64,000 nucleotides of DNA from a virus. Lineage: Duplodnaviria > Caudoviricetes. The stretch is taken from IMG/VR virus record IMGVR_UViG_3300028374_000002, positions 128,001 to 192,000 of that record. The stretch is one strand, 5' to 3'. Positions 1,797-44,284 of this stretch are shown here, piece after piece (positions within the stretch are counted from its first letter, which is position 1; each line of letters starts with the position of its first letter). The position numbers and the translations under genes were made by a program. A model generated the notes under the pieces. It worked only from the letters and a program-made list of their open reading frames with translations. It made no database searches and was not told the origin of the DNA.

Positions 1797-3842
1797 ATGA
1801 AAGTACATAATTACAAAGGTTTTAGAAATGAAAGCAAACACGAAGTATTAGAACCTATAAACGAAAACTTAGATAGGGCTAAAAAGCTTATAAAGGAAAG
1901 AGAGACTATTAAAATAGCAGCAAAAGAACTTAACTTACTTTCTGATGATTTAAAATATAAGATGGAAGAGGGTGATATAATTACACTTAGGTTAGAAGAT
2001 TTCCCTAGAGAAAGTAGAGGAGATTTAGCTTATAAGATGAAAGGTGTTAAGATGAAGCCAGATGAACTTAAACAACTTGAAAAGAGTCCTACTTTTAAAG
2101 AACTGAGAGAGATTGTTGGGCAAAAGAACCTTGGATTCATGTACAACTTTGCATATATGTTTTATATAGAAAAAGCACCATTAGAGGATCTTAGAGATTT
2201 ATCAGATAAGTTAAAAGAATACAAGAGTTTGCTTCCTAGGTTATCAAAAATGCCAGAAATTGGTAGAAATTTTGATGCTAATTTTATCGATGATACTTAT
2301 ATAGATAATAGCACACCAGATACCGAAAGACCACTCACAAATTTTGAGACAATAACTGATGCTATGACAGAACTTGGGAAGTATAAAAGAGTTAAGATTG
2401 TACTAGATAGTTTGCCCAAAAAGATGAGAGATCAGTATGATACTGCACCAAAACTATTGAAGAATGACATGGATGAAATTGCTAGGGGATTTCTTGAAAC
2501 TGTTAGTGATGATGAAAAAGTTAGGGCTAAAGTTTGGCGGAATTTCTTTGGGGGTATGATAGAAGACACATATAAATTTACAACAGATGGTGATATTAAT
2601 CCTACATTTGGTAAAATGGTATATTCAAGTCGTATTAAAAAGTTTGAAAAAGAGCCAAATCCATTAAAAGCTTTTATAATAGATGCTAAAAAACATCTCA
2701 AAACATCAGTAGTTAATATTGATGAGCGTGAATCTAGGCTTAAAATCATAAAAAAAACAAATGATAGATTTGGACAAATGGGATGTGAATTGATTTTGGA
2801 TGATAGTGGTATAATCATTGTCATTGTGTTTTCATTCCCAGCTAATAATATGTTAAACGCACATGCTGGAGACCACTGTATAGTTAGTGCACAACACCAC
2901 TGGAATCACTATGTTGGTGAGTTTAATAAACAATATTATATCTATAACACCAACATAAGCAAAGTAGAAAATTTATCTACAATAGGTGTTAGTATTGAGC
3001 CCGATCAAGGTATAAGTTCTGCTGCTTGTCAAGATGTTCAAAATAATCCCATACGTAATAGATTTAGAGCTATTCTTAACTCATGGGAGAATGAATATGA
3101 CTTAGATTACAAGCTATTTGATATATTACAACCAATGAGTGAAGAAGAAGTAGATAAAAGAAAGAGAGCAAAAGAAGCAGATAGAGAAATAATAAAAAAG
3201 GGATTATCAATAGATGATATCAAAAGGCTTGTAACAGAAGATGGTGCTGACATTAATAAAAATTCCTCACAAGCCTTAATTAATGCAACTGAAGATGGTG
3301 ATTATGAGAAAATTAAACTATGCTTAGAGTATGGTGCATCACCTAATCTAGCATCTGGATCAAATGCAGCAATATCAAAAGCAAAAGACTTTGATACTGT
3401 TAAGTTACTTGTTAGCTATGGTTCGGATTTAACCACTAATGTACTTAAAGGAATAATAAATAATCCAGAGGCTCTACAATACTGTTTTGATGCTGGATTA
3501 GATCCTAATATGTCTAACTCAAGACCATTAAGAGAATGTATTAAAGGAACCTGGAAAAGCAAAGAAAACTTAGGCGATGCATACGTAGAATCTGCTAAGG
3601 TAATATTAGACCAACCAGAGGTAATAGAAAATGTTAAGAGAACAATAGATATTATGATTAAATACGCAGTTAATTATGGCAGAATTGGTATATTAGAATT
3701 GATGAAAAGAAAAGGCTTATTTACTAAATTAACCAACGAACAAGTAGAAACCTATGAAAAATGGCTTGAACAAGGTGGGAGAATAACACCAGAGTTAGCA
3801 GATGAAGTTCTTGAATATATATCCAAAAATATGTATGAGTAG
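1797..3842 (+). CDS. Large protein with C-terminal ankyrin repeats
   Basis: GADINKNSSQALINATEDGDYEKIKLCLEYGASPN and following units match the ankyrin consensus (GAxxN...AL..A...G...vkLLlxxGA). Confidence 0.7.
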   Translation: MKVHNYKGFRNESKHEVLEPINENLDRAKKLIKERETIKIAAKELNLLSDDLKYKMEEGDIITLRLEDFPRESRGDLAYKMKGVKMKPDELKQLEKSPTFKELREIVGQKNLGFMYNFAYMFYIEKAPLEDLRDLSDKLKEYKSLLPRLSKMPEIGRNFDANFIDDTYIDNSTPDTERPLTNFETITDAMTELGKYKRVKIVLDSLPKKMRDQYDTAPKLLKNDMDEIARGFLETVSDDEKVRAKVWRNFFGGMIEDTYKFTTDGDINPTFGKMVYSSRIKKFEKEPNPLKAFIIDAKKHLKTSVVNIDERESRLKIIKKTNDRFGQMGCELILDDSGIIIVIVFSFPANNMLNAHAGDHCIVSAQHHWNHYVGEFNKQYYIYNTNISKVENLSTIGVSIEPDQGISSAACQDVQNNPIRNRFRAILNSWENEYDLDYKLFDILQPMSEEEVDKRKRAKEADREIIKKGLSIDDIKRLVTEDGADINKNSSQALINATEDGDYEKIKLCLEYGASPNLASGSNAAISKAKDFDTVKLLVSYGSDLTTNVLKGIINNPEALQYCFDAGLDPNMSNSRPLRECIKGTWKSKENLGDAYVESAKVILDQPEVIENVKRTIDIMIKYAVNYGRIGILELMKRKGLFTKLTNEQVETYEKWLEQGGRITPELADEVLEYISKNMYE

Positions 3843-3859
3843 AAACTCTATATTAAAAT

Positions 3860-3888
3860 AAAAAACTCACATTAAATGTGAGTTTTTT
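3860..3888. terminator. Bidirectional terminator between convergent genes
   Basis: AAAAAACTCACATT-A-AATGTGAGTTTTTT. Confidence 0.7.
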
Positions 3889-4592
3889 TGTTCTAGTACC
3901 TTATATATGAGGTAAGCATCATTACAATCCTCATATGGCTTGTTTATAGATTTAACAGATGTTAAATCATCTTTTACATATTTACAGTGTTTGTACCAAT
4001 AATCATCAAACCTTTCATTCTCAACTATTGCCAAGTACATATCTGGTTTTTGAAAATTACCACCTGATATGCCTATTTTATTTCTCCATTTGTAATCAGT
4101 TCTAGGATTCTTACCACCAATTTCCCTTACTATAGGCTCATAAGTTAGTTTACAAGACTCTAGTTTTAAAGTGCTAGGTGACATAACAAAAATATTATTA
4201 GAAACTTTATCAAACAACTTCTTCCTAAGAAGTGTGGAGAATGCAACTAAGTCCACTAGGTCTCCAACTTTTGATCCAAAATTAAATCCTTCTATCCCTA
4301 TTTCAGTTGGTTCGTCTATGTCTATATTTTCTAAAATATCATCTATTATAGTATCTGTTATTCTATCATAGTCTTTTAATTTAGTAAGTTCACCTTCAGA
4401 ATAGTCTCCAAATTCACGGTATTCAACAAATCTATATATGACATGTTCTTCTGCCATCTTAAACCACTTTTTCATTCCCTTCTTACCATATACATCCCTT
4501 TCTCTAGTATAATTGTATATTTTAAATGTGTCTTTATTAGATACTACCATACCTGTTGATATAAGACTAGGGTCTATTGCTACATAATTCAT
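3867..4592 (-). CDS. RuvC-like Holliday junction resolvase / RNase H-fold nuclease
   Basis: N-terminal YVAIDPSLISTG, central IGIEG and C-terminal DCNDAY acidic motifs. Confidence 0.75.
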   Translation of the reverse strand: MNYVAIDPSLISTGMVVSNKDTFKIYNYTRERDVYGKKGMKKWFKMAEEHVIYRFVEYREFGDYSEGELTKLKDYDRITDTIIDDILENIDIDEPTEIGIEGFNFGSKVGDLVDLVAFSTLLRKKLFDKVSNNIFVMSPSTLKLESCKLTYEPIVREIGGKNPRTDYKWRNKIGISGGNFQKPDMYLAIVENERFDDYWYKHCKYVKDDLTSVKSINKPYEDCNDAYLIYKVLEQKNSHLM

Positions 4593-4662
4593 ACATTATA
4601 TATTAATATATACCCTTCCCTGTGTTGTGTATTAATTAAATTACTATATTTGTGAAAAAAAT

Positions 4663-5142
4663 ATGATTATGTCGTTGTTGTTGAGCATTGTGGTTCTTAT
4701 ACTATCATTTATATTTTCTATATACCAAAAAAGAAGAGTAAGCATATTATCAGATATAATGATGGGTAAGAATTGTTATTCGTGTAAGAAAAGAATACAC
4801 GACACAGATGAAGATTATATGACACATATTGTAGCAATAGGTTATGATTTCAAATATACTATGTGTGATTCTTGTATTAGACACAAAAAGTTAATAAGGC
4901 TAAAGAGTGTATATTATAGAATCAAGCCTAATTTAAATGAATTTCTGATAAAAAAATATGATAAGAAATCTCCTAAAATATTTTATATATCACTAGGTTT
5001 TATTTTATTGGCAGTTGTGTTATCATTTGTATTTGATATTTTTTGGATTATGTTAGTACTTATCCAATTATTTGTTATGTTTGTGTCAATTATTATGTAC
5101 TATAGGTCATACTTGACTACAATTAAAAAAACCCCATCTTAG
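4663..5142 (+). CDS. Membrane protein with CxxC...CxxC motif
   Basis: Hydrophobic N- and C-terminal segments, CYSC and CDSC; TATATTTG at 4645-4652 upstream. Confidence 0.55.
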   Translation: MIMSLLLSIVVLILSFIFSIYQKRRVSILSDIMMGKNCYSCKKRIHDTDEDYMTHIVAIGYDFKYTMCDSCIRHKKLIRLKSVYYRIKPNLNEFLIKKYDKKSPKIFYISLGFILLAVVLSFVFDIFWIMLVLIQLFVMFVSIIMYYRSYLTTIKKTPS

Positions 5143-5156
5143 AGATGAGGTTTTTT
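5125..5156. terminator. Bidirectional terminator before the uvsX 3' end
   Basis: AAAAAAACCCCATCT...AGATGAGGTTTTTT. Confidence 0.65.
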
Positions 5157-5211
5157 GGGGCTGACTTGATTTGTCCACCTTCCACCAACTTATTTAATAT
5201 AAGTTTATTAT

Positions 5212-6441
5212 TTATCCAAATAAATCTTCTGCATCAGTTGCATCTGAGAATCCATCTGTATCATCATCATCAGCAGCATCGTTAATAGTCTTATTGAATT
5301 CTTTTTCAGTTTCTTCTATCTCATCCATAGATTTGAATCTAAAATAATCATTAACAATAGGATTCATTATCTCCAATATTTCATCTGTGAAGATATTTGC
5401 TTTATGTAATTTTTTAAGGAAAAATGATTTATCTAAATGCCTCACGTAGTATTTATTACCACCTGGTTTAAATGATAGCTCACCTGTATCCTTATCAACT
5501 TCCATCTTACCCTTGGCTATTCCTATCTCTTTAAAGTATTCAGGTCTACAGAACGCTTCTAAGCCAGTATATGGATTCATACCATCTACGAACGAAATAT
5601 CAAATCTTATTTTCTTAGGCTTAGCTAATCTATTTTTGCTAGTTTTAAAGAGAACGTTGATACCAGATTGTCCAAGATCCATATCATCCTCATCACCAGT
5701 TTTTAACTTAGACTTAGATAAGAATCCAATAACAGATGCAGAATATAAAAGTCCATTACCACCTCTTAACATCTCTTTTGGGAACATGTCTAGTGTTCTG
5801 TATGTTTGGTTTATAACTAGAAATGGTATTTTTAAAATACCTAAATCTGTATTTAAACTTCTAAACATAGAACTTAAGGCTTTTGCCTTTGTCATATCTT
5901 GTTTTATATCACCTTTTAATAAATCTAGCTTCTCTTTATTAGATGCCATTTGACCTAGTGAATCCAATACTAGAAGTATTTTGGGTAGATTGCTCCCAGC
6001 CATCTTTTGGTCTTTTAAGTCATCAACAAGCTGTGTTAATGTCATATTTATATCTTCGACTTTATTAGACCTAATAAGTCTAAATTTATCTAGATTGGTG
6101 TCTATGCCATAATTCGATAAATCTTGTAAGTCTATAGATTGTTCTGTGTCTATATAAATACATGAATATCCTAGTTTCTGTGCATTCTTCACAACAGAGT
6201 ATGCTAAAAAGGATTTACCAGATCCAGACTCCCCTGCAAATGCAGAAATTCTGTTAGTAGGTATACCACCGTTTAACATATGTGCTGAAAGTGCAGCATC
6301 TAGGATATATACACCAGTAGAAATAAAACTTCTTTCTTCTATTTCTTTCTCAATGTAAATAGGAACTTTCTTTGAAATATTATCTAGTATAGTTCCTACT
6401 TTACTAAATTCGAAATCTTTATTGCTTTTTTTCTTCGCCAT
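5212..6441 (-). CDS. uvsX: RecA/UvsX-like recombinase
   Basis: Walker A GESGSGKS, YIDTEQS, VLDSLG, GGNGLLYSAS; phage UvsX-like length. Confidence 0.9.
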   Translation of the reverse strand: MAKKKSNKDFEFSKVGTILDNISKKVPIYIEKEIEERSFISTGVYILDAALSAHMLNGGIPTNRISAFAGESGSGKSFLAYSVVKNAQKLGYSCIYIDTEQSIDLQDLSNYGIDTNLDKFRLIRSNKVEDINMTLTQLVDDLKDQKMAGSNLPKILLVLDSLGQMASNKEKLDLLKGDIKQDMTKAKALSSMFRSLNTDLGILKIPFLVINQTYRTLDMFPKEMLRGGNGLLYSASVIGFLSKSKLKTGDEDDMDLGQSGINVLFKTSKNRLAKPKKIRFDISFVDGMNPYTGLEAFCRPEYFKEIGIAKGKMEVDKDTGELSFKPGGNKYYVRHLDKSFFLKKLHKANIFTDEILEIMNPIVNDYFRFKSMDEIEETEKEFNKTINDAADDDDTDGFSDATDAEDLFG

Positions 6442-6505
6442 ATTAAAAATGTTTTTTATTTATATACCAAATATTCTGTTTTGTTTGGAAATTTGTGTTA
6501 AATAA

Positions 6506-7006
6506 TCAAAAGAATATTTGCTCTAATCCTTTCTTACCATTCCCAGTTATCTCATCTCTTACATCCATTATCATCTTGCCTAGCATATTCTTACCATCTA
6601 TATTTTTGCACTTATCACAAAAACAAGATCCAAAATAGTTATCATGCCACCAATTGCCCTCTACTAACTCTTGATTACCAGTTGCAATTAGTTTACGCCT
6701 TAACTCTTTATTCTTAAATTTTTCAGTTATCCCAAACTTCATTACAATAAACCTATATTGCTTCCAATCATTTCTAGGCTTTATAGATTCTCCAACCTTT
6801 TTCACTAAACTAGCATTATCTAACTCAGATACCATTACTCTAAATTCATTTACAGTATATCTTTTCTTCTGAAACAAAACACTAGTATTTACTTTCATAG
6901 CTATATAATAATGCTCAACACTAGAATATATTATATCATCTTCCACTATCTCACATGGGTAGAAGTTAGACAAAAAGTGATTATCCCCTCTAAATACTCC
7001 AATCAT
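6506..7006 (-). CDS. NADAR (YbiA-like) family hydrolase
   Basis: FLSNFY, SVEHYY.A.K, KF...L..TG..ELVEGNWWHDNYFG, GKNMLGK..M.VR motifs. Confidence 0.85.
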   Translation of the reverse strand: MIGVFRGDNHFLSNFYPCEIVEDDIIYSSVEHYYIAMKVNTSVLFQKKRYTVNEFRVMVSELDNASLVKKVGESIKPRNDWKQYRFIVMKFGITEKFKNKELRRKLIATGNQELVEGNWWHDNYFGSCFCDKCKNIDGKNMLGKMIMDVRDEITGNGKKGLEQIFF

Positions 7007-7025
7007 AATTTATTTATTTATTTGT

Positions 7026-7355
7026 TTAAAAAAAGTCATAGTTGGCACCAACATATCTTGGTGTGTATCTCTTATCATATCCATTTATCTCTCTATTAAT
7101 ATCTTGCTTTGCTTTTTGTCTCTCTGTCCTATTAAGTTTTTTTCTAAACCATTTAGGAGCAACAGACCTATTGCTAAAGTTGTTACAACCTTCTGTGTAT
7201 AAAAAGTAAACTTTATTCGATATAACTGATGCCTCAGAGTGTGTTGAATATGATTTATCCCATGTATATGGTGTCCTTCCAAATCTAAGATACTCATCAT
7301 ATATAGCTAATGATATATTGTACTTATCTCTGAAAAAGTGTTTATTATGCTTCAT
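7026..7355 (-). CDS. Hypothetical protein (start reassigned to MKHNKH at 7355)
   Basis: The upstream part of the 7026-7427 ORF overlaps the tmRNA 3' end and its terminator. Confidence 0.55.
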   Translation of the reverse strand: MKHNKHFFRDKYNISLAIYDEYLRFGRTPYTWDKSYSTHSEASVISNKVYFLYTEGCNNFSNRSVAPKWFRKKLNRTERQKAKQDINREINGYDKRYTPRYVGANYDFF

Positions 7356-7368
7356 TTTTAATATGAAT

Positions 7369-7394
7369 AAAAAACCCATCATTAGATGGGTTTT
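7369..7394 (-). terminator. Intrinsic terminator after tmRNA
   Basis: AAAACCCATC-ATTA-GATGGGTTTT hairpin. Confidence 0.7.
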
Positions 7395-7400
7395 ATTTTG

Positions 7401-7774
7401 TGGAGAAGATGGTGTACCGCCCACCATGTCTTCAACAGTTATTAATAACTAATCATTTACAAGTTTATTTAGTTTTTCTAAACTAAAAAAATATATAATC
7501 TTTTTGATAAACTCTAAAAATTATTAAAAAACTGTTCCATATTTTTAATTGTATAGTGCCAATTGCAGATTTTTTAGAAACTACTGTTATGCAGTTGCTA
7601 GATCCTCTACTTGGATCATGTTGTTTTGTAGAGTCGCTACTAAATCTTCACGAGTTCCTACTTTGTTTACGTTTCCGTTTAAAAAATTTGTATTTTAATT
7701 TATTAATCGGGTAAATAACAATCCGATACTTGCATAGTTGCTAATTCACCATAAATCAATTCTAGAACTTCCCC
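7401..7774 (-). ncRNA. ssrA: tmRNA (one-piece), tag about (A)GNVNKVGTREDLVATLQNNMIQVEDLATA*
   Basis: 5' GGGGAAG pairs with 3' CTTCTCC-A (G3:U wobble, discriminator A). GAC-ATGGTG/CACCAT T-arm. PK1-type pseudoknot ATCGG/CCGAT plus TTATT/AATAA. Tag ORF 7676-7587 ends LATA. About 374 nt. Confidence 0.9.
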
Positions 7775-7785
7775 ATAGTATTTTA

Positions 7786-7800
7786 CAAATATATATATTA
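7786..7800 (-). promoter_or_regulatory. Overlapping late-type (TAATATATA) and Bacteroidota -7 (TATATTTG) promoter motifs for tmRNA
   Basis: Minus strand reads TAATATATATATTTG, ending 11 nt before the tmRNA 5' G. Confidence 0.6.
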
Positions 7801-7811
7801 TATATGAAATA

Positions 7812-8615
7812 TCAAAAAAGTTTAACTTTTTTAAAACTATTGAAAGATTTCATATATTTTAAATTTTCTGATATGTTCCCAATTGGTATACCTTCCCAGT
7901 CTATAGACACACATGCACTTGCTAGTGATTCTAGAAATGATATATTTTGCTTTTCATCCGTAGTATGTTCATTATAATAACCAACAGAAATATTAGTACA
8001 CTCCTTTATCTTACCAATGAACGATGCAGAATCACTATAAACGCCACTGTCATCTAAATTAAATTTAAGGCCATTTTCTAAGAATGTATCTTTTAATCTA
8101 TTAGCAAAAACATCACTACAACACCTCTCTTTACTTTGATGTGTTACTATAGAGTCTATACCACGCCTATCAAAGCTCACACACTTAGTTATATGGTCTA
8201 GGTGTCTATTACTGTCAAAAGAATTAGATAAGGCACTAGAGCCTATCACACCAACTTCTTCGCCTATGAAGAAGTAATATAACCCAACCACACCCCTTTC
8301 TATCATATATAGCATCAATGTAACACCTGCCTTATCATCAGCCCCTAAAATTGTATTAGTTGAGAACACATAATCATTCCCTTCTATATTTTTAACAAAA
8401 GGATTTGTATTAACTTGCTCCTTGCCATAATTATCCAAATGTGAATTAAACATTGTACTAGGCTTATCACCAACCACTTTATAATAATTCCCAAACTCAT
8501 CCTTTTCCAATTGGGGCAATATATTTAGTAAATCTTCCTCAGTAGAATGAGGATGTGTTTTATCAACTAATTTTAAAAATGTTTTTCTAATGTCGTTATA
8601 ATTTGTATTATTCAT
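7812..8615 (-). CDS. M28/M20-clan zinc peptidase
   Basis: SHLD, LGADDKAGV, FIGEEVG..GS, SFDRRG and YYNEHT metal-ligand motifs. Confidence 0.8.
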   Translation of the reverse strand: MNNTNYNDIRKTFLKLVDKTHPHSTEEDLLNILPQLEKDEFGNYYKVVGDKPSTMFNSHLDNYGKEQVNTNPFVKNIEGNDYVFSTNTILGADDKAGVTLMLYMIERGVVGLYYFFIGEEVGVIGSSALSNSFDSNRHLDHITKCVSFDRRGIDSIVTHQSKERCCSDVFANRLKDTFLENGLKFNLDDSGVYSDSASFIGKIKECTNISVGYYNEHTTDEKQNISFLESLASACVSIDWEGIPIGNISENLKYMKSFNSFKKVKLF

Positions 8616-37836: not shown

Positions 37837-38355
37837 ATGATTAGAGAATTATACTGTTTTGATTTTGATAAAACACTGTGCTTAACACCAGAGCCAAAAG
37901 AAGGTAAAGTTATATGGAAAGAAAAGACTGGTGAGGATTGGGGACACCGAGGTTGGTGGGGTAAGCCTGACTCTTTAGATACTAGTGTATTTGATATACC
38001 AAAGGTTGATTGGATTTATGAAGAATATCTAAGGGCAGTTGCTAGACCAGGTTCTTACGTCATTATGGCTACTGGGAGACAGAATAGAGTAATGGGAATG
38101 AGATCCCGTGTTGAAGAAATTATTAGAAGCCACAATATGTCCTTTGATGAGGTTCATTTATGTAGTGGTCACGATACATTTACATTTAAAGTAAAGCTAT
38201 TTGAAAATCAAATAGAAAATACTAAATGTGAACACTTCACTATGTATGATGATAGGGCTGAGCATTTAGAAAAATTCGCTAGGTGGGGAGAAACACAAAA
38301 GATAAAGATTACAATAATCGACTCAATTAACAAAACTATAAAAACATTTAATTAA
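37837..38355 (+). CDS. HAD phosphatase (Swiss-army-knife RNA-repair type); start reassigned to MIRELY
   Basis: FDFDKTL, GWWGKP, ATGR, MYDDRAEH; TATATTTG at 37821-37828. Confidence 0.75.
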   Translation: MIRELYCFDFDKTLCLTPEPKEGKVIWKEKTGEDWGHRGWWGKPDSLDTSVFDIPKVDWIYEEYLRAVARPGSYVIMATGRQNRVMGMRSRVEEIIRSHNMSFDEVHLCSGHDTFTFKVKLFENQIENTKCEHFTMYDDRAEHLEKFARWGETQKIKITIIDSINKTIKTFN

Positions 38356-38360
38356 TAGCT

Positions 38361-38639
38361 ATGACAAAGATAAAAGAAGAAACTAAGACAGAAGTAGAAG
38401 AAATATTATCTAGTCCATATAGACTAGATTTACACAATGACTCCCATAATTCATTTGAACATGTTATTAAGTGTTTGATAAATATATGTGGACACGAAAA
38501 AGAACAAGCAAATCAATGTGCACACATTGTACACTTTAAAGGTATTTGTGATGTTAAGTATGGTGATTATGAGACTATTTCTAGTATGAAAGAAAAATTG
38601 TCAAATAATGGACTGCTTGTTACTATGGAGGAAAACTAG
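38361..38639 (+). CDS. clpS: ClpS N-degron adaptor
   Basis: LHNDSHNSFEHVIKCL...HEKEQANQCAHIVHFKG.CDVKYG. Confidence 0.85.
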   Translation: MTKIKEETKTEVEEILSSPYRLDLHNDSHNSFEHVIKCLINICGHEKEQANQCAHIVHFKGICDVKYGDYETISSMKEKLSNNGLLVTMEEN

Positions 38640-38643
38640 CTGA

Positions 38644-41600
38644 TTACCTGCGTCTTCCATATCCACTACTTGACTTATATTTACTCTGACCATATCCACC
38701 ACCAGTTCTAGAACCAAGTGTTTTTTTCTTCACATCTAAAAAGTGTGTGTAATCATTACTTTCTATATAATCAGATTTCTTCATACACTCATTTATGTAA
38801 TCAACTATTTCCTTATCAACATGTTTGTTCATCCATTCGTGTATCATCTCTGTAAACTCGTTCTTTTCGAATATAGATGTAGCATTTACAATAGTCATGA
38901 CACAATTATGTACAACTATCCCATTTGCTACATAACTATTATCATCCTCTACTTCTAAATTATAAGTTGTTCCAGTATAATTATACTTTTCATTTCTTTG
39001 TAGTACTGACGAATATTCAAAATCAGAAATCTTTCTCATACATGACCTTTCTAAACTATCTTCATAAATAGATACCCAATATTGGCTTTTCGTAGGCTTA
39101 CCATATCTATGTCTTTTATTATAGGATATTACTGCATGTTTGTCTAATGATATAGATATATCTCTCATAGTCAATGCTAGTTGAAAACTAGTTGAACATC
39201 CTATGTAATGTTTAGTCTTACCAGGTGTTTCACAGAGCCAACCATCTCCCTTTATCCAATAATCTAGGACTAGGGACATTTTCTCTTTATCTAGTTTGTT
39301 ATAGAGCATTTCGGGGAATATTTTCTCTTTATCTTCATCATAGCATTTAGAAAATATTTCCCATAAGAATCTATTATAAAATATCACAGTAGTGCAATTA
39401 TTTCTATTCTGTACATGATATTTTAAATTCCAGTTATTTATTATATCCTTCATTTCATCAATAAGAGTTAAATCTTTATCATTAAAGGCTAAAGTTATTC
39501 GGTAAGTATTATGAGATGGTTTATAACTGTTACCATCTGCTAAGAATAAGCCTAAAAACTTAGCAAAATTATTATCTAGTTCTATTTCCTTTATTTTAAA
39601 ATTAGATGACGGAGAATATTTATTCCTTTCAAATAATTCTTGATATTTGATATTATTAACATCACCAGTATATAGAGGTGATTTTATAACAACACACCTA
39701 GATTTATTAGAAATGTCACTTGGTAAAATCCACTCTCGCTTAAGATAATTATTATAATTCTTTCTATTTTTCTTTGAGTAGTCATTTTTTGGAACATATA
39801 TAGGATGGTTATATGTTATATCTAAGCTAGGTTGGCCTCTAAATTTGATTCTGTGCATAACACCATCAAAATCTTTTTTACATATATTTGTTACTGGTTT
39901 GTAATTTCCTAAATGTGTTAACACCAACTCACCTAATTTGATATCTTTTATTCTTTTATAACCATTTATAGTCTTTATAAGAGTGTTTGGCAAAACGCAA
40001 TCATCGTTTCCATTATCTGCTGCATATTTTATATTACCAGAACTAGTTGTATGTTTTACAAATGTGGTTATTTCCCTTATGGTGTCTTCATTATTTATTG
40101 AGAAAGATTTACTAAGCATTAGAGATTGGTAGTCTTTTATAAGTAAATTTTTTAAACTTGTTACTTTAAGTCCTACCTTTTCTTCTGGTGAATCTATTCT
40201 GTGCTTATATCTAACAAATACAGAAGAACCATAATCATTAATACCATCAAAAACATGAGGTAGTTCTGCTAGTAATGTATTTCCATAGTTGTTAAGTTCT
40301 AAAACTATTTTAAGGTTATCTGGATTAAAATATTCAAAAGCTAATATATAAAGCAATTCTGACATTTGTTTAATAGATATTATATTACTTCGATATATCC
40401 CAATTTGTTCTAGTTTGAAAAAATCCTTTATTGATGAATACTTTTCTTTTTGTATATCTATGACCTCTCTACTTTTATTACTTATTCTGAATATGTTTAT
40501 AACAGAAAAATCTTGACCTAATCCCTCTGCAAGGTCAATTGATAAGACTATTTTATATTCTTTTCTTTTTATAGGGTTGTATATATCATAATCATCAACC
40601 CATTTTAAATTTTCATAGGAAAAATTTAGCTTATCTTCAAATTCATATATCTCCTCCCACTCATAAAGAATTTTATTATTCAATAAATGGTCTATAATAT
40701 TTTCACTTAGTAAAGATTTACTAGCATTTACAAATCTAAGACCGTATTCTTGGTTAAAAGCATCTTCTCCACCAATATCTTTTATTGCCTCATCCTTCCA
40801 TGTAGTAAGTTCTGCTAACTCTAGTATAGATATCTCTTTACCATCGGGTGTTTTTATATTAAATCCAACAACATCCTCATCATGACAATAATCATTATTA
40901 TAAACCTCGATTACATATTTTTGTAAATCAACACTCCAACTCATTTCGACCTTAGTATCAGCACCCCATTTATTATGTACTTGATTAAGAATATCATCCT
41001 TTTCTATTTTGTTTTCGTATAATTTATGATCATTAAGCCTTATATATGTAACAAACCTACCAGGGACTTGATACCAGTAAACCCTCATAGGGGTGTAGTT
41101 GTTTCTTTGTGGGTCACCAGCTGGTCGTTCTGCATTAGTAAGTAATTTATGAAATAAATTCATACCATTTGGTGTAGATGTGATTATTATTTTAGAGTTT
41201 TTTATTGCAGATACTGTTGGAAAAACCGCAGTATAATATGGTTCTATTATGTTTGAAGGAATATGTGCAAATTCATCTAAATAAAGAACATCAATAGTAA
41301 AACCAATAGCTGGAGTCTTTGTCCTAGCAGAGGTCTTAATACGACAACCATTGTCAAATGTTAGTGATTTTTGATTCCATGTTTTTATACCAGGTTTTAA
41401 AAAAAATGGTAGTAATGAATAAATGGATTTTATCTTGTCAACAATCTCAACTGATGTATCTCCCTTGTTAGCTACAATCATAATGTTTTTATCATTATTG
41501 AATAGTATTGTATGGAGCATAAATATAGAAGCAGATATAGTATTATGTGAAAGTATCCCATTCGTGTAGAACCTATGATTCTGATGGTCTACCGATAAAT

Positions 41601-41991
41601 CAAACATAGATGATTTATAATCTTCCCTTTTTATATGCTTCACAATACTATTGCCATTTTTGGTCTTTATAGTATCGCCTATTTTTAATTCTTTACAGAA
41701 TACTTCATCAAAATATTCATCAAATAATATATGATTATCTGCACAAGTTAAGCTAAGACCGTCAATAGTTTTGATATTATAATGATTAAATGGTTGTGTT
41801 AAATGTATCTCTGATACTGCCTCATATCCAGTATCAGTCTTTACTCTAATATCTATTAAAGATATAGATTTTAATATTTTTTTAGAAATATCATCCTCAT
41901 CCAATGATACATTTCTATATTGGTATTTTTCTATCAACTCAATAGATTTTTCTATCAACTCAATCAATATTTTTTTAAGAAGTGTAATCAT
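38644..41991 (-). CDS. gp17: Terminase large subunit, C-terminal part (begins with IntC; contains a second intein)
   Basis: After IntC: TISASI, IVANK, LYLDEFAH, IITSTPNG, SIDLAEGLGQDFS, DD-CVM. Confidence 0.9.
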   Translation of the reverse strand: MITLLKKILIELIEKSIELIEKYQYRNVSLDEDDISKKILKSISLIDIRVKTDTGYEAVSEIHLTQPFNHYNIKTIDGLSLTCADNHILFDEYFDEVFCKELKIGDTIKTKNGNSIVKHIKREDYKSSMFDLSVDHQNHRFYTNGILSHNTISASIFMLHTILFNNDKNIMIVANKGDTSVEIVDKIKSIYSLLPFFLKPGIKTWNQKSLTFDNGCRIKTSARTKTPAIGFTIDVLYLDEFAHIPSNIIEPYYTAVFPTVSAIKNSKIIITSTPNGMNLFHKLLTNAERPAGDPQRNNYTPMRVYWYQVPGRFVTYIRLNDHKLYENKIEKDDILNQVHNKWGADTKVEMSWSVDLQKYVIEVYNNDYCHDEDVVGFNIKTPDGKEISILELAELTTWKDEAIKDIGGEDAFNQEYGLRFVNASKSLLSENIIDHLLNNKILYEWEEIYEFEDKLNFSYENLKWVDDYDIYNPIKRKEYKIVLSIDLAEGLGQDFSVINIFRISNKSREVIDIQKEKYSSIKDFFKLEQIGIYRSNIISIKQMSELLYILAFEYFNPDNLKIVLELNNYGNTLLAELPHVFDGINDYGSSVFVRYKHRIDSPEEKVGLKVTSLKNLLIKDYQSLMLSKSFSINNEDTIREITTFVKHTTSSGNIKYAADNGNDDCVLPNTLIKTINGYKRIKDIKLGELVLTHLGNYKPVTNICKKDFDGVMHRIKFRGQPSLDITYNHPIYVPKNDYSKKNRKNYNNYLKREWILPSDISNKSRCVVIKSPLYTGDVNNIKYQELFERNKYSPSSNFKIKEIELDNNFAKFLGLFLADGNSYKPSHNTYRITLAFNDKDLTLIDEMKDIINNWNLKYHVQNRNNCTTVIFYNRFLWEIFSKCYDEDKEKIFPEMLYNKLDKEKMSLVLDYWIKGDGWLCETPGKTKHYIGCSTSFQLALTMRDISISLDKHAVISYNKRHRYGKPTKSQYWVSIYEDSLERSCMRKISDFEYSSVLQRNEKYNYTGTTYNLEVEDDNSYVANGIVVHNCVMTIVNATSIFEKNEFTEMIHEWMNKHVDKEIVDYINECMKKSDYIESNDYTHFLDVKKKTLGSRTGGGYGQSKYKSSSGYGRRR
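38905..39999 (-). mobile_element. Contiguous intein with LAGLIDADG endonuclease (365 aa)
   Basis: GNDD|CVLPNT...FLGLFLADG...WIKGDG...YNLEVEDDNSYVANGIVVHN|CVM. Confidence 0.92.
41542..41991 (-). mobile_element. Split intein C-fragment (IntC, 150 aa)
   Basis: TCADNH (block B-like), FDLSV..NHRFYTNGILSHN|T. Confidence 0.9.
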
Positions 41992-42009
41992 TTTTTTTAT
42001 TATTTTTAT

Positions 42010-43005
42010 CTATACATTATTTAAAAAATCTATACATTTTTTAATAGTTAAATCTTTTTTGCTTTTATATTCAGTATCCCATATTATTAGAATATCAAAT
42101 CCTTTTGATTTAGCAATATTTATTTTTAAATTATCTTTATCCCATATTTCCCTTGCAGTAGGTCCACTTTCTTTATAGAAAGGATGTGGGTAATCGTTCT
42201 CTTTGAAAGTTTTAGGATTTGCATGGTATAAATCACCATTGTATTCGATAATTTTCATTCTTTTTCTATCAGTGAAATCATATGAGAAAAATCCTACATC
42301 TTTAACTGATATAAAGAACTCTTTATTTTTTATTGCATAGTGTACACGTTTTAGTTCATTATCTGTATAAATCTTACTTATCTTTTTAAATAGGTCTTGT
42401 GATATTTCAGAATAGCCACATTTCATATTACCATTTTCTGCCAAATTTTTCTGCCAAAGTGTTTGTCTATCTAGCCATCTTTTCTTACCACCAACATCAC
42501 CATATTTTTCTACACATTTTTTTAGAGAAAATGTACTTTGTCTTTCACTAAGCATCTTTTTAGATGTTTCCTCATCATAACCTTTCAGTAAATAGTATTC
42601 TAAAGTAGTATCTGATATTCTATCCTTAATAGCTTCCTTTGCAAAAATACTTATATGCTTCTCTATATTCTCTATACCTTCATATTTTGAAAAGTTCTTT
42701 GAAAATGGACTTCTCGATTTTCTTTCTAATTCAGTTGTATTTTCTTTGTGATTAGGATTTTTTCTGCCTCTTATTTTATCTGCAAACATTTTTTTATACT
42801 TTTCTGTCTTCATATGCTTACCACTTTTAATTGTTGTCTTAGCCTTATCTGATAATGCCATTATAGGAGCACCTTCGTACAATTCTTTATATTCTTTAGT
42901 AGTCATATTATTATGTGCAAATTTTAAATGTTTACCATATATTCTTTTACATTGCTCACCACATATTCTACATGTTACAGTTTCTTTATTATCATTTATT
43001 ATCAT
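42010..43005 (-). CDS. Free-standing Vsr-like homing endonuclease between the split-intein halves
   Basis: CRIC..H..H Zn finger; YDF...IIEYNGDLYHANP...D..K...A..KGFDILIIWDTE. Confidence 0.8.
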   Translation of the reverse strand: MIINDNKETVTCRICGEQCKRIYGKHLKFAHNNMTTKEYKELYEGAPIMALSDKAKTTIKSGKHMKTEKYKKMFADKIRGRKNPNHKENTTELERKSRSPFSKNFSKYEGIENIEKHISIFAKEAIKDRISDTTLEYYLLKGYDEETSKKMLSERQSTFSLKKCVEKYGDVGGKKRWLDRQTLWQKNLAENGNMKCGYSEISQDLFKKISKIYTDNELKRVHYAIKNKEFFISVKDVGFFSYDFTDRKRMKIIEYNGDLYHANPKTFKENDYPHPFYKESGPTAREIWDKDNLKINIAKSKGFDILIIWDTEYKSKKDLTIKKCIDFLNNV

Positions 43006-43075
43006 AATTTATTCTGTTTTATTATTAAATGCTTTTATATATAAAAAGATGTTGGCTTGTTATCAAATAGGTAAA

Positions 43076-43591
43076 TTATTTTTCTAGCAAAAATAAAATA
43101 TCATATAGTTTAATTTTTATTTTTTCTAATAATGTTAGTGATCTTTCTTGCTTAAGCATGTAGTAATATAGTTTACCAATTCTATATTCTTTTCTAATTT
43201 CCTTGCTCTTAATTTCGCATAAAGTGTTGAAGGTCAAGCACTTACCCACCTGCCTACTAGCCATTAATATATTGAATCGATTATCAACAAAATTATCTAA
43301 TATGTCAGCTTGATAGTCTCTAAGTGTTATTGCTCCAATAGAACCATCTTCTCTTTTCACCTTACAGTATTTTTCGGTAAAATGGTGTATATCTAGTGCA
43401 CATTTAATGTATTCTCCTTGCTCGGCACTTGTCATCTTAAATGTAAGACCTGATCTTCTTAACCCTATTTCATTTTTAAGCCATGGGTTTTGAAACCTTT
43501 TTAGTACTATACCATCATTTATCTTATCAGTAGCCTCGGTAACGTTCTCACTACTAAATACCATTTGTCTTTCTTTCTTAATCTTTGCCAT
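43076..43591 (-). CDS. gp17: Terminase large subunit, N-terminal part + IntN
   Basis: EYIKCA.D..HF..KY, LRDYQ, ILMASRQVGK followed by CLTFNT. Confidence 0.9.
   Translation of the reverse strand: MAKIKKERQMVFSSENVTEATDKINDGIVLKRFQNPWLKNEIGLRRSGLTFKMTSAEQGEYIKCALDIHHFTEKYCKVKREDGSIGAITLRDYQADILDNFVDNRFNILMASRQVGKCLTFNTLCEIKSKEIRKEYRIGKLYYYMLKQERSLTLLEKIKIKLYDILFLLEK
43079..43240 (-). mobile_element. Split intein N-fragment (IntN, 54 aa)
   Basis: Starts at Cys right after the Walker A GK; CLTFNTLCEI...IGKLY resembles atypical TerL IntN sequences. Confidence 0.88.
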
Positions 43592-43633
43592 AAGCGACTT
43601 ATTTTTTTATATATATTATAAAAAAACAGCTCT

Positions 43634-44284
43634 ATGTCTAAAACAGATAAAGAAAAAAGTAGGATACAAGACGAATTTGATCAAATACAAGGGGAGAATA
43701 ATGATTTTGATATATCAAAACATTTGGCAGAAGCAGAAGATTTACCAGACCTTGGTGAGATAAGCTTGTATGATTATGATGCAGATTTAAGCACATCATC
43801 ACAGCAATCAGTGGAGGTTTTAAGTTCACTTATAGACTTATACCTAAGTGATGTTCCAAAACTAAAACAACATCCTTATATAAAAAATAAGATGAAGGAA
43901 GATGCTATGGTATATTCAGAGGCTATATTCTTGGCTAAAATGACTAGAAAAAACTTCCTTAACCAACTACGCCAAATTGATAATGGGGAAAGCTCAGCTA
44001 GAATGCACGAAGTTGTTAACCAGACTATTGTGCAGGTTAGGGAAAACTCTAAATTTCTATCCACACAAAGAACTGACTTAGAAAAGTTCTATAAGAATCT
44101 AAGAACAGATATGGGATTAGACGATATTGAAAATTCAGAGGTTTTAGAGTCACAATCTGATAAAGCGAAAGATTCACAAGATGATGGTGATATTGTTGAT
44201 AATAGAAAACTAAATGACCTTATAAAAGGAGCAATGATGAAAGAGAGTAATAATAAAAAAGAAAGTAAGGGTAAAAAGAAGTAA
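43634..44284 (+). CDS. Probable terminase small subunit (gp16-like)
   Basis: Helical protein with ARMHEVVNQTI and C-terminal KLNDLIK; divergent from TerL. Confidence 0.5.
   Translation: MSKTDKEKSRIQDEFDQIQGENNDFDISKHLAEAEDLPDLGEISLYDYDADLSTSSQQSVEVLSSLIDLYLSDVPKLKQHPYIKNKMKEDAMVYSEAIFLAKMTRKNFLNQLRQIDNGESSARMHEVVNQTIVQVRENSKFLSTQRTDLEKFYKNLRTDMGLDDIENSEVLESQSDKAKDSQDDGDIVDNRKLNDLIKGAMMKESNNKKESKGKKK

Follow-up and report, generated by a model that had tools for sequence, protein, structure and literature searches.

How a phage can package its DNA when the gene for its large terminase subunit (TerL) is broken inside the Walker A motif is the question raised by the locus analysed here. It lies in a stretch of 64,000 nucleotides (nt) of viral DNA (Caudoviricetes), hereafter called the window, which corresponds to positions 128,001 to 192,000 of the IMG/VR virus record IMGVR_UViG_3300028374_000002. 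This record comprises 201 kb, with an estimated completeness of 28%. In GenBank, it is most closely related to the 'uncultured phage' genomes LR745206 and LR756500-LR756504, which measure 462-735 kb. A first-pass annotation of the window had described a terminase gene fractured by a split intein at Walker A, with an endonuclease gene between the two intein halves. This observation is genuine, and every detail of it was confirmed. The locus is very likely the fractured terL of a huge Mahaphage-like phage from a lake, in which mobile inteins occupy both catalytic centres of the enzyme and a homing endonuclease is encoded between the halves of the first intein.

The gene consists of three co-oriented open reading frames (ORFs) on the minus strand. 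ORF A (43591..43076, 171 amino acids (aa)) encodes the N-terminal part of TerL followed by the N-terminal intein half (IntN) and matches the PHROG terminase family phrog_5989 with an E-value of 2e-17. Its N-extein of 117 aa (43241..43591) ends in MASRQVGK, the first half of Walker A. In agreement with the SRQVGK|C boundary and the 54-aa IntN described before, C118 follows directly after K117 and opens an IntN of 54 aa (C118-K171, 43079..43240; stop codon 43078..43076). The start of ORF B (43005..42010, 331 aa), a free-standing nuclease gene, lies 70 nt behind the stop of ORF A, and another 18 nt separate ORF B from ORF C (41991..38644, 1115 aa). ORF C opens with the C-terminal intein half (IntC, 150 aa, 41542..41991), which contains the blocks B (CADNH), F and G (GILSHN). 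Here, too, the boundary reported as SHN|T on a separate ORF is found: IntC ends in NGILSHN and is followed by T151, the second half of Walker A, and then by ISASIFMLH. The first part of the C-extein (514 aa, 40000..41541) runs from this Thr to an HDD/NDD motif and covers the remaining ATPase domain and most of the nuclease domain. A second, contiguous intein of 365 aa (38905..39999) is inserted at DD|C. The second part of the C-extein (86 aa plus stop codon, 38644..38904) begins with Cys, the +1 residue of intein 2, and is homologous to the C-terminus of intein-less TerL. ORF C matches the Pfam family Terminase_6N with an E-value of 3.8e-14, and PHROG terminase families were matched as well. 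Since the same layout is present in seven independent IMG/VR contigs at 97-100% identity and is shared by hundreds of diverged homologues, it is neither a product of chance nor an assembly artefact.

The junctions can be compared directly with alleles that lack the inteins. Joining K117 to T151 gives SRQVGKTISASIFMLH, which is the sequence at the first junction in the closest phage, LR745206.1. This phage is syntenic and encodes one uninterrupted TerL of 710 aa, with HDDCVMTIVNATSIF at the second junction. Likewise, the 36 intein-less IMG/VR loci read SRQVGKTISAS without interruption across the first junction, which bears out the earlier expectation that splicing would restore SRQVGK-T and answers the check proposed for it, an alignment with intein-less TerL. 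Exactly across the second junction, the intein-less TerLs of LR745206.1 and of the IMG/VR loci read DD-CVMTIV. In an alignment to the structures of T4 gp17, in which ORF A could be aligned up to K166, the site of intein 1 corresponds to K166|T167 in Walker A. The site of intein 2 was located with an intein-less homologue aligned to T4 gp17; it immediately follows the HDD motif in the nuclease domain, which we take to be the position of the metal ligand D542 of gp17. As intein 1 splits Walker A and intein 2 directly follows the nuclease HDD motif, both catalytic centres of TerL need protein splicing. The computed length of the mature TerL is 717 aa (117 + 514 + 86). P-loops are a known hot-spot for inteins (PMC4760082).

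The first intein has the anatomy of a split intein. IntN contains block A only. The split is of the atypical kind known from AceL-TerL and GOS-TerL, since block B belongs to IntC. Public metagenomic protein collections contain at least 276 protein clusters of the N-half (about 170-185 aa) and at least 358 of the C-half with this IntC, and conservation was evaluated on the best 120 homologues of each. Cys1 (GKC) is present in 119 of the 120 N-halves. SHN followed by Thr is found in all 118 split C-halves, the remaining two of the 120 being contiguous forms. Thirteen positions are invariant in an alignment of 27 IntC sequences, namely C83, A84, D85, H87, M129, F130, D131, H139, R140, S148, H149, N150 and T151. 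In block B, the usual Thr of TxxH is replaced by Ala (CADNH), and the blocks F and G read MFD...HR.YTNGILSHN|T. The hallmarks of a class 1 split intein are present, including Cys1, the block B His, the His-Asn end, Thr+1, a restored host sequence and the location of the halves on separate ORFs.

Comparison with solved structures points in the same direction. IntC matches the consensus intein Cat (PDB 6DSL, 6dsl_B) in a phmmer search with an E-value of 2e-7, with residues 38-150 aligned to 8-112. The matches to gp41-1 (E-value 3e-5) and VidaL are weaker than that to Cat, and a search with IntN and its junction gave no PDB sequence match. The predicted complex of IntN (ORF A residues 105-171) and IntC (ORF C residues 1-165) reached a score of 0.86, compared to 0.00 for the best of three controls; of 80 solved complexes 58 attain this mark, compared to 2 of 110 mismatched pairs, it denotes likeness and not binding, and its HINT-core part may reflect memory, since split-intein complexes including Cat (6DSL) have been solved. 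The complex runs have at least 78% of their contacts in common, and the predicted local distance difference test (pLDDT) value of the partner is at least 82.

Intein 2 is a conventional contiguous intein with the blocks A (CVLPNTL), B (TYNH) and F/G (VVHN|C). It matches Pfam Intein_splicing with an E-value of 1.5e-15 as well as Hint_2, and a PDB sequence match was not found. The LAGLIDADG-like motifs LGLFLADGNS and YWIKGDGW are visible, and the corresponding Pfam match, LAGLIDADG_WhiA, is weak (E-value 0.014). The near-identical strain represented by locus L023 lacks exactly this intein: it reads NGNDD|CVMTIV, with 1095 nt absent. Among the 120 C-halves, 13 carry intein 2. The claim that packaging would depend on trans-splicing agrees with the split-intein anatomy. 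It was incomplete, since intein 2, which is absent from the first-pass annotation, adds a second predicted splicing event.

The following course of events is proposed. ORF A would yield the N-extein with IntN, and ORF C would yield IntC with the remainder of TerL. IntN would dock into IntC to complete the HINT fold, with the terminal helices of the two halves pairing in antiparallel orientation. Class 1 trans-splicing, using Cys1, the block B His, the terminal Asn and Thr+1, would then ligate GK to T. Intein 2 would splice in cis, and the product would be the 717-aa TerL. Packaging would then depend on two protein-splicing events. The endonuclease encoded by ORF B would most likely cut intein-less terL during co-infection, after which the cassette of IntN, endonuclease gene and IntC would be copied into the cut gene. 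No terminator-like site was detected between the three ORFs, which is consistent with their co-transcription, and promoter-like sites did not exceed the shuffled expectation.

The assignment of ORF B relies on its predicted structure. An AlphaFold2 model built from 15 homologues has a mean pLDDT of 77, with about 90 for residues 195-331. The protein consists of a Ros/MucR-type C2H2 zinc finger (residues 1-61, 43005..42823), a conserved helical middle part (residues ~62-194) and a Vsr-like (EDxHD-type) nuclease domain (residues 195-331, 42423..42013). In comparisons with VIA-align, the nuclease domain superposes on E. coli Vsr (1cw0; Z 11.7, root-mean-square deviation (rmsd) 2.7, 115 residues aligned) and on the catalytic domain of I-Bth0305I (3r3p; Z 10.6, rmsd 2.6, 95 of 97 residues), and residues 1-61 superpose on the Ros C2H2 zinc finger (2jsp; Z 4.6, rmsd 3.2, 59 residues aligned). 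Foldseek alone returned weak matches for the nuclease domain (E-values 0.04-0.15), and the Pfam match to ROS_MUCR has an E-value of 1.6e-4, below the curated cut-off. D243, E254 and H261 are invariant in the 15 homologues. Their spacing equals that of D51, F62 and H69 in Vsr, an equivalence read from the spacing and not from the superposition. The description of ORF B as a free-standing Vsr-like endonuclease gene between the halves is thus supported at the level of the modelled fold.

I-Bth0305I is the prototype of the EDxHD (Vsr-like) homing endonucleases; it is encoded by a group I intron and carries two NUMOD/HTH motifs (PMC3239194; PDB 3R3P). Both enzymes are bipartite, with a DNA-binding N-terminal part and a nuclease C-terminal part, and their catalytic domains superpose. 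In contrast to I-Bth0305I, ORF B is located between the halves of an intein, and its product combines a C2H2 zinc finger with a long helical region C-terminal to it. Its Asp-to-His spacing of 18 residues is that of Vsr (D51 to H69), whereas I-Bth0305I has 17 (D196 to H213).

Both intein halves carry an additional element at the split. The last ~22 aa of IntN (43144..43079) and the first ~24 aa of IntC (41991..41920) form amphipathic, conserved helices. As the IntC of Cat begins only at about residue 31 of the IntC described here, these terminal helices are extra relative to Cat. Even LR756500 and LR756501 retain them, although their identity to the window over the terL ORFs is only 34-47%. In the complex model, ORF A residues 155-170 touch the IntC helix, and residues 158-166 pair antiparallel with ORF C residues 20-13 with a heptad-like contact spacing; no solved counterpart for these helix-helix contacts was found. 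In the contiguous variants of the protein clusters P0024 and P0025, the helix of IntN is followed immediately by that of IntC, which fits an antiparallel pairing. Furthermore, there are two allele classes, in which the tail of IntN and the head of IntC vary together.

The model and the conservation suggest that the helices could be an association and specificity device for the two halves. A more specific and somewhat doubtful possibility is that the helices (ORF A ~150-171 and IntC 1-24) form a natural heterodimerisation zipper that sets both affinity and partner specificity. If this were true, it would explain how terL halves that have drifted up to 12 kb apart still find each other in an infected cell in which five or more further split inteins are expressed at the same time, one of them the paralogous P-loop intein of the gp41 helicase. 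The zipper would then be a natural counterpart of the engineered coiled-coil or FKBP/FRB add-ons on low-affinity split inteins, and the two helix/intein allele classes could serve as ready-made orthogonal pairs.

Several points weigh against the proposed interpretation or parts of it. Inteins with Thr at position +1 are a minority among inteins, and the splicing of intein 1 is a prediction here. The relative LR756500 ends in SSQ|T and not in SHN|T, and the canonical end is hence not kept throughout the family. For ORF B, D313, the last of the acidic residues, varies in that it is replaced or shifted in one sub-group, and a sequence match to Vsr or I-Bth0305I was found neither with Pfam nor with phmmer against PDB nor with a profile of the 15 homologues against PDB. 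The zipper is proposed from structure prediction and conservation. Finally, a second intact terL could be located in the remaining 72% of the genome.

The non-canonical end in LR756500 and the conserved helices predicted to pair would also suit an arrangement in which the intein is inactive and the TerL fragments are held together non-covalently, docked by the paired helices and the HINT interface. There is a precedent in phage Aeh1, where interaction domains derived from a mobile element are reported to assemble the split NrdA (PMC3045599). Nevertheless, such a non-covalent assembly is very unlikely for TerL. The break lies inside the P-loop at GK|T, and about 200 residual intein residues would disrupt ATP binding. 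In addition, Cys1, the block B His, block F, His-Asn and Thr+1 show no or almost no variation in more than 100 diverged sequences. Such conservation of splicing residues is not expected for a mere docking module and disfavours it with respect to protein trans-splicing.

The distribution of the intein in related phages is patchy. The state of the Walker A site could be classified in 76 of 80 related loci from IMG/VR. The site is intein-less in 36 of these loci. In 34 loci, it is split and the halves flank a homologous Vsr-like gene; these include locus L040, where this gene is broken in two. Four loci are split with other content between the halves, either an antisense 575-aa ORF or rearranged genes, and two have only 76 nt (L042) or 284 nt (L036) and no nuclease gene between the halves. 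L034, L035, L037 and L038 lack the Vsr-like gene; the 1.8 kb that separate IntN from IntC are instead taken up by an antisense ORF of 574-575 aa. The halves can also be dispersed or joined. In LR756501, a distance of 12.4 kb that holds about 14 genes, encoded on both strands, separates them. In L039, they are separated by six antisense genes, including homologues of genes located upstream of terL in the window. Due to this distance and these antisense genes, the halves must be regarded as independent genes whose products have to meet as proteins. In the clusters P0024 and P0025, the halves are re-fused to a contiguous intein. A tree of the exteins, which are 66-76% identical across the family, requires at least 10 changes between presence and absence of the intein, nine of which are forced by well-supported branches.

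The fractured layout is also found in LR756500 (locus L004, LR756500.1 190000-200000, with the features of interest on the minus strand at 7825..4237 and 4145..3333), where the N-half, a Vsr-like endonuclease gene and the C-half follow each other as in the window and IntN has 69 aa. Separately from this, the 462-kb genome of LR756500 contains a TerL-like ORF of 270 aa with a degenerate Walker A (SRQMGIS) directly downstream of the fractured terL. The locus had been regarded as a new natural member of the split inteins. It is indeed a homologue of the atypical TerL inteins, and it is no isolated case, since it belongs to a large family that includes LR756500 and LR756501.

The mobility of the cassette is most visible in the comparison with L023. 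The flanks and exteins of this strain are ~99-100% identical to the window at the DNA level, and the region in between is a mosaic. IntN and the spacer show 48-68% DNA identity, followed by 94-97% over the first ~400 nt of the nuclease gene, which encode the DNA-binding N-terminal part of ORF B (42600-43005). The identity drops to 39-75% across the nuclease domain and IntC, with only 41-83% for the nuclease-domain part of ORF B (42013-42600), and returns to 100% from ~60 nt before the C-junction onward. Family-wide, two variants of the nuclease domain, with or without an insert of ~26 aa, occur on similar N-terminal parts. On the basis of the sequences, this pattern points to a recent modular exchange of cassettes between otherwise clonal genomes.

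A further difference between alleles is found in the flank. In a comparison of the window with the loci L009-L088 that ignores phylogeny, the codon of Ser112 (43256-43258), located five codons upstream of the intein, is AGY in the majority of alleles with the intein and TCN in all but one empty allele. This bias is consistent with a co-conversion tract of the flank, or the codon may be a marker of resistance to the nuclease. A free-standing Vsr/DUF559-like ORF of 156 aa was observed in L003 (LR756504.1, 3225..3695), where it ends exactly at the start of an intein-less terL. It may be a homing endonuclease parked beside terL.

The high identity of the exteins also bears on whether this terL copy is in use at all. 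The record covers 28% of the genome, and in LR756500 the fractured terL is accompanied by an adjacent TerL-like paralogue. Therefore, it could be argued that the copy is a decaying pseudogene and that another terminase, encoded in the remaining 72%, packages the DNA. This is highly improbable, since the exteins are 100% identical in near-clonal strains with differing inteins and conserved across the family as given above, both ORFs are intact across hundreds of contigs, LR745206.1 carries its single, intact terL at the syntenic position, and the 201-kb record contains no further Terminase_6N match.

Mending at the level of RNA or translation by a group I or group II intron, trans-splicing or ribosomal bypass, with the intein-like ends as remnants, is scarcely credible: group I introns occur in related huge phages (PMC12880540), and ORF B and ORF C lie in one frame with one TAG and six codons between them, but no Rfam family was matched over 38000-44200 even at an E-value of 1, removal of the insert from the RNA would still leave an intein that needs to splice, the 12.4-kb distance in LR756501 and the antisense genes in L039 speak against it, relatives do not preserve the common frame, and TAG ends 13 of 54 long ORFs, normally with another stop soon after. 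A fusion of ORF B to ORF C by read-through or recoding of this TAG was considered as well and rejected. By the count just given, TAG is an ordinary stop; every other TAG meets a further stop within 18 codons, and in relatives ORF B and ORF C overlap or occupy other frames.

Protein splicing of a fractured terL is in line with known systems. As the first-pass annotation had stated, fractured genes with split inteins and Vsr-like endonucleases have been described before. Dassa, London, Stoddard, Schueler-Furman and Pietrokovski (2009; PMC2677866) reported loci from the GOS metagenome in which a free-standing endonuclease gene of the GIY-YIG or Vsr-like type stands between an IntN-extein gene and an IntC-extein gene, including one incomplete locus from Lake Gatun with a gp17-like terminase. 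The locus in the window shares with them the layout of three ORFs on one strand, the presence in phage DNA enzymes including terminase, the Vsr-like nuclease fold and the proposed origin by invasion of an intein by a homing endonuclease. This order was found in 34 of the 76 related loci. There are three differences. Their inteins are mostly split at the canonical position, with a long IntN and a short IntC, whereas the split here lies before block B. The nuclease carries an N-terminal Ros/MucR-type zinc finger instead of NUMOD/HTH motifs, and a second, contiguous intein is present in the same gene.

The relationship to the atypically split inteins AceL-TerL (25/104 aa), GOS-TerL (37/115 aa) and Cat (30/104 aa, PDB 6DSL), all of which use Cys+1 (PMC11766414), is one of homology. 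They have in common the TerL host, a short IntN, block B in IntC, a homologous IntC and the motifs CxDNH and YTNGI(L/V)SH. In contrast to their Cys+1, the intein here has Thr+1 inside GK|T. Because the +1 residue differs, the insertion site must differ as well, a deduction made from this residue alone. The kinship with AceL-TerL and GOS-TerL that had been suggested therefore stands at the level of homology, as the match of IntC to 6DSL indicates, and does not extend to allelism: judged from sequence, intein 1 appears to be a homologue of these inteins at another site. Its halves of 54 and 150 aa also differ by an extra amphipathic helix of ~22-30 aa at each split end, which Cat does not have.

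The same insertion site is occupied in cultured Vibrio phages such as VAP7 and its relatives VP-1 and BX-1 (Ackermannviridae), whose TerL intein reads SRQSGK|C...SHN|T. The VAP7 intein has homologous blocks (DTGY, CADxH and MYDL...YFTDGILSHN). It differs in being a contiguous, cis-splicing form without an endonuclease gene and with an unrelated linker where the helices would be. In the VAP7 genome (L007, NC_048765.1), this mini-intein of ~170 aa at GK|T is unannotated, and the coding sequence HWC21_gp148 is labelled 'terminase large subunit'. In Vibrio phage Va1 (L006, MK387337.2), Va1_137 and Va1_136 represent a fractured terL with a different insertion site. Here, the gene annotated as 'putative terminase (T4 gp17-like)' encodes an in-frame fusion of a Vsr-like endonuclease, a C-intein (NHN|C) and the C-terminal part of TerL, and the preceding ORF, 'DNA packaging protein', overlaps this fusion.

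A related split intein is present in the own genome of the phage, outside the window, in the gp41/DnaB helicase (L091, G000:C1:108587-111967; intein at ~109.2-111.2 kb). It is located in a P-loop (GGK|C...SHN|S) with the same structural split position, and its IntC is 32% identical to that of TerL (pairwise E-value 1e-19). Its halves comprise 37 and 148 aa. In contrast to the TerL intein, its IntN lacks the C-terminal helix, the +1 residue is Ser, and the halves are separated by a gap of 78 nt without an endonuclease gene. The presence of two paralogous P-loop split inteins in one phage raises the question of cross-reaction. In the same genome and likewise outside the window, the large subunit of the class I ribonucleotide reductase (L089, G000:C1:111500-120500) is distributed over four ORFs with three split inteins. 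A free-standing endonuclease gene lies between the halves of each of these inteins, two being Vsr-like and one GIY-YIG-like. One of the C-inteins is followed by GGGK and a stop, with a gap of ~290 nt before the next exon-like ORF and no Rfam intron there.

A literature search found no paper on a split intein in TerL of Mahaphages or other huge phages. The layout is known in kind from the loci of Dassa et al. (2009) and from AceL-TerL and GOS-TerL, and the comparison of sequences suggests that the insertion site and the extra helices are what is distinct here. The finding is therefore useful, well supported and unsurprising in principle. For protein engineering, it provides hundreds of natural Thr+1 variants with a short IntN, together with helices that are candidates for a zipper and with two divergent classes of alleles. 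A further addition is a new zinc-finger and Vsr-like nuclease, whose predicted target would be the highly conserved coding sequence of Walker A.

Almost all stages of the homing cycle can be seen in this family on a single gene, from empty sites and cassettes with an intact nuclease gene to broken and lost nuclease genes, dispersed halves and re-fused halves, and the near-clonal pair of the window and L023 catches a cassette swap in the act. For the phages themselves, protein splicing would rebuild both the ATPase P-loop and the nuclease site of TerL and would thereby become an obligatory step late in infection. In an entire clade of the largest phages known, the packaging motor would have to await trans-splicing and, in some strains, cis-splicing as well.

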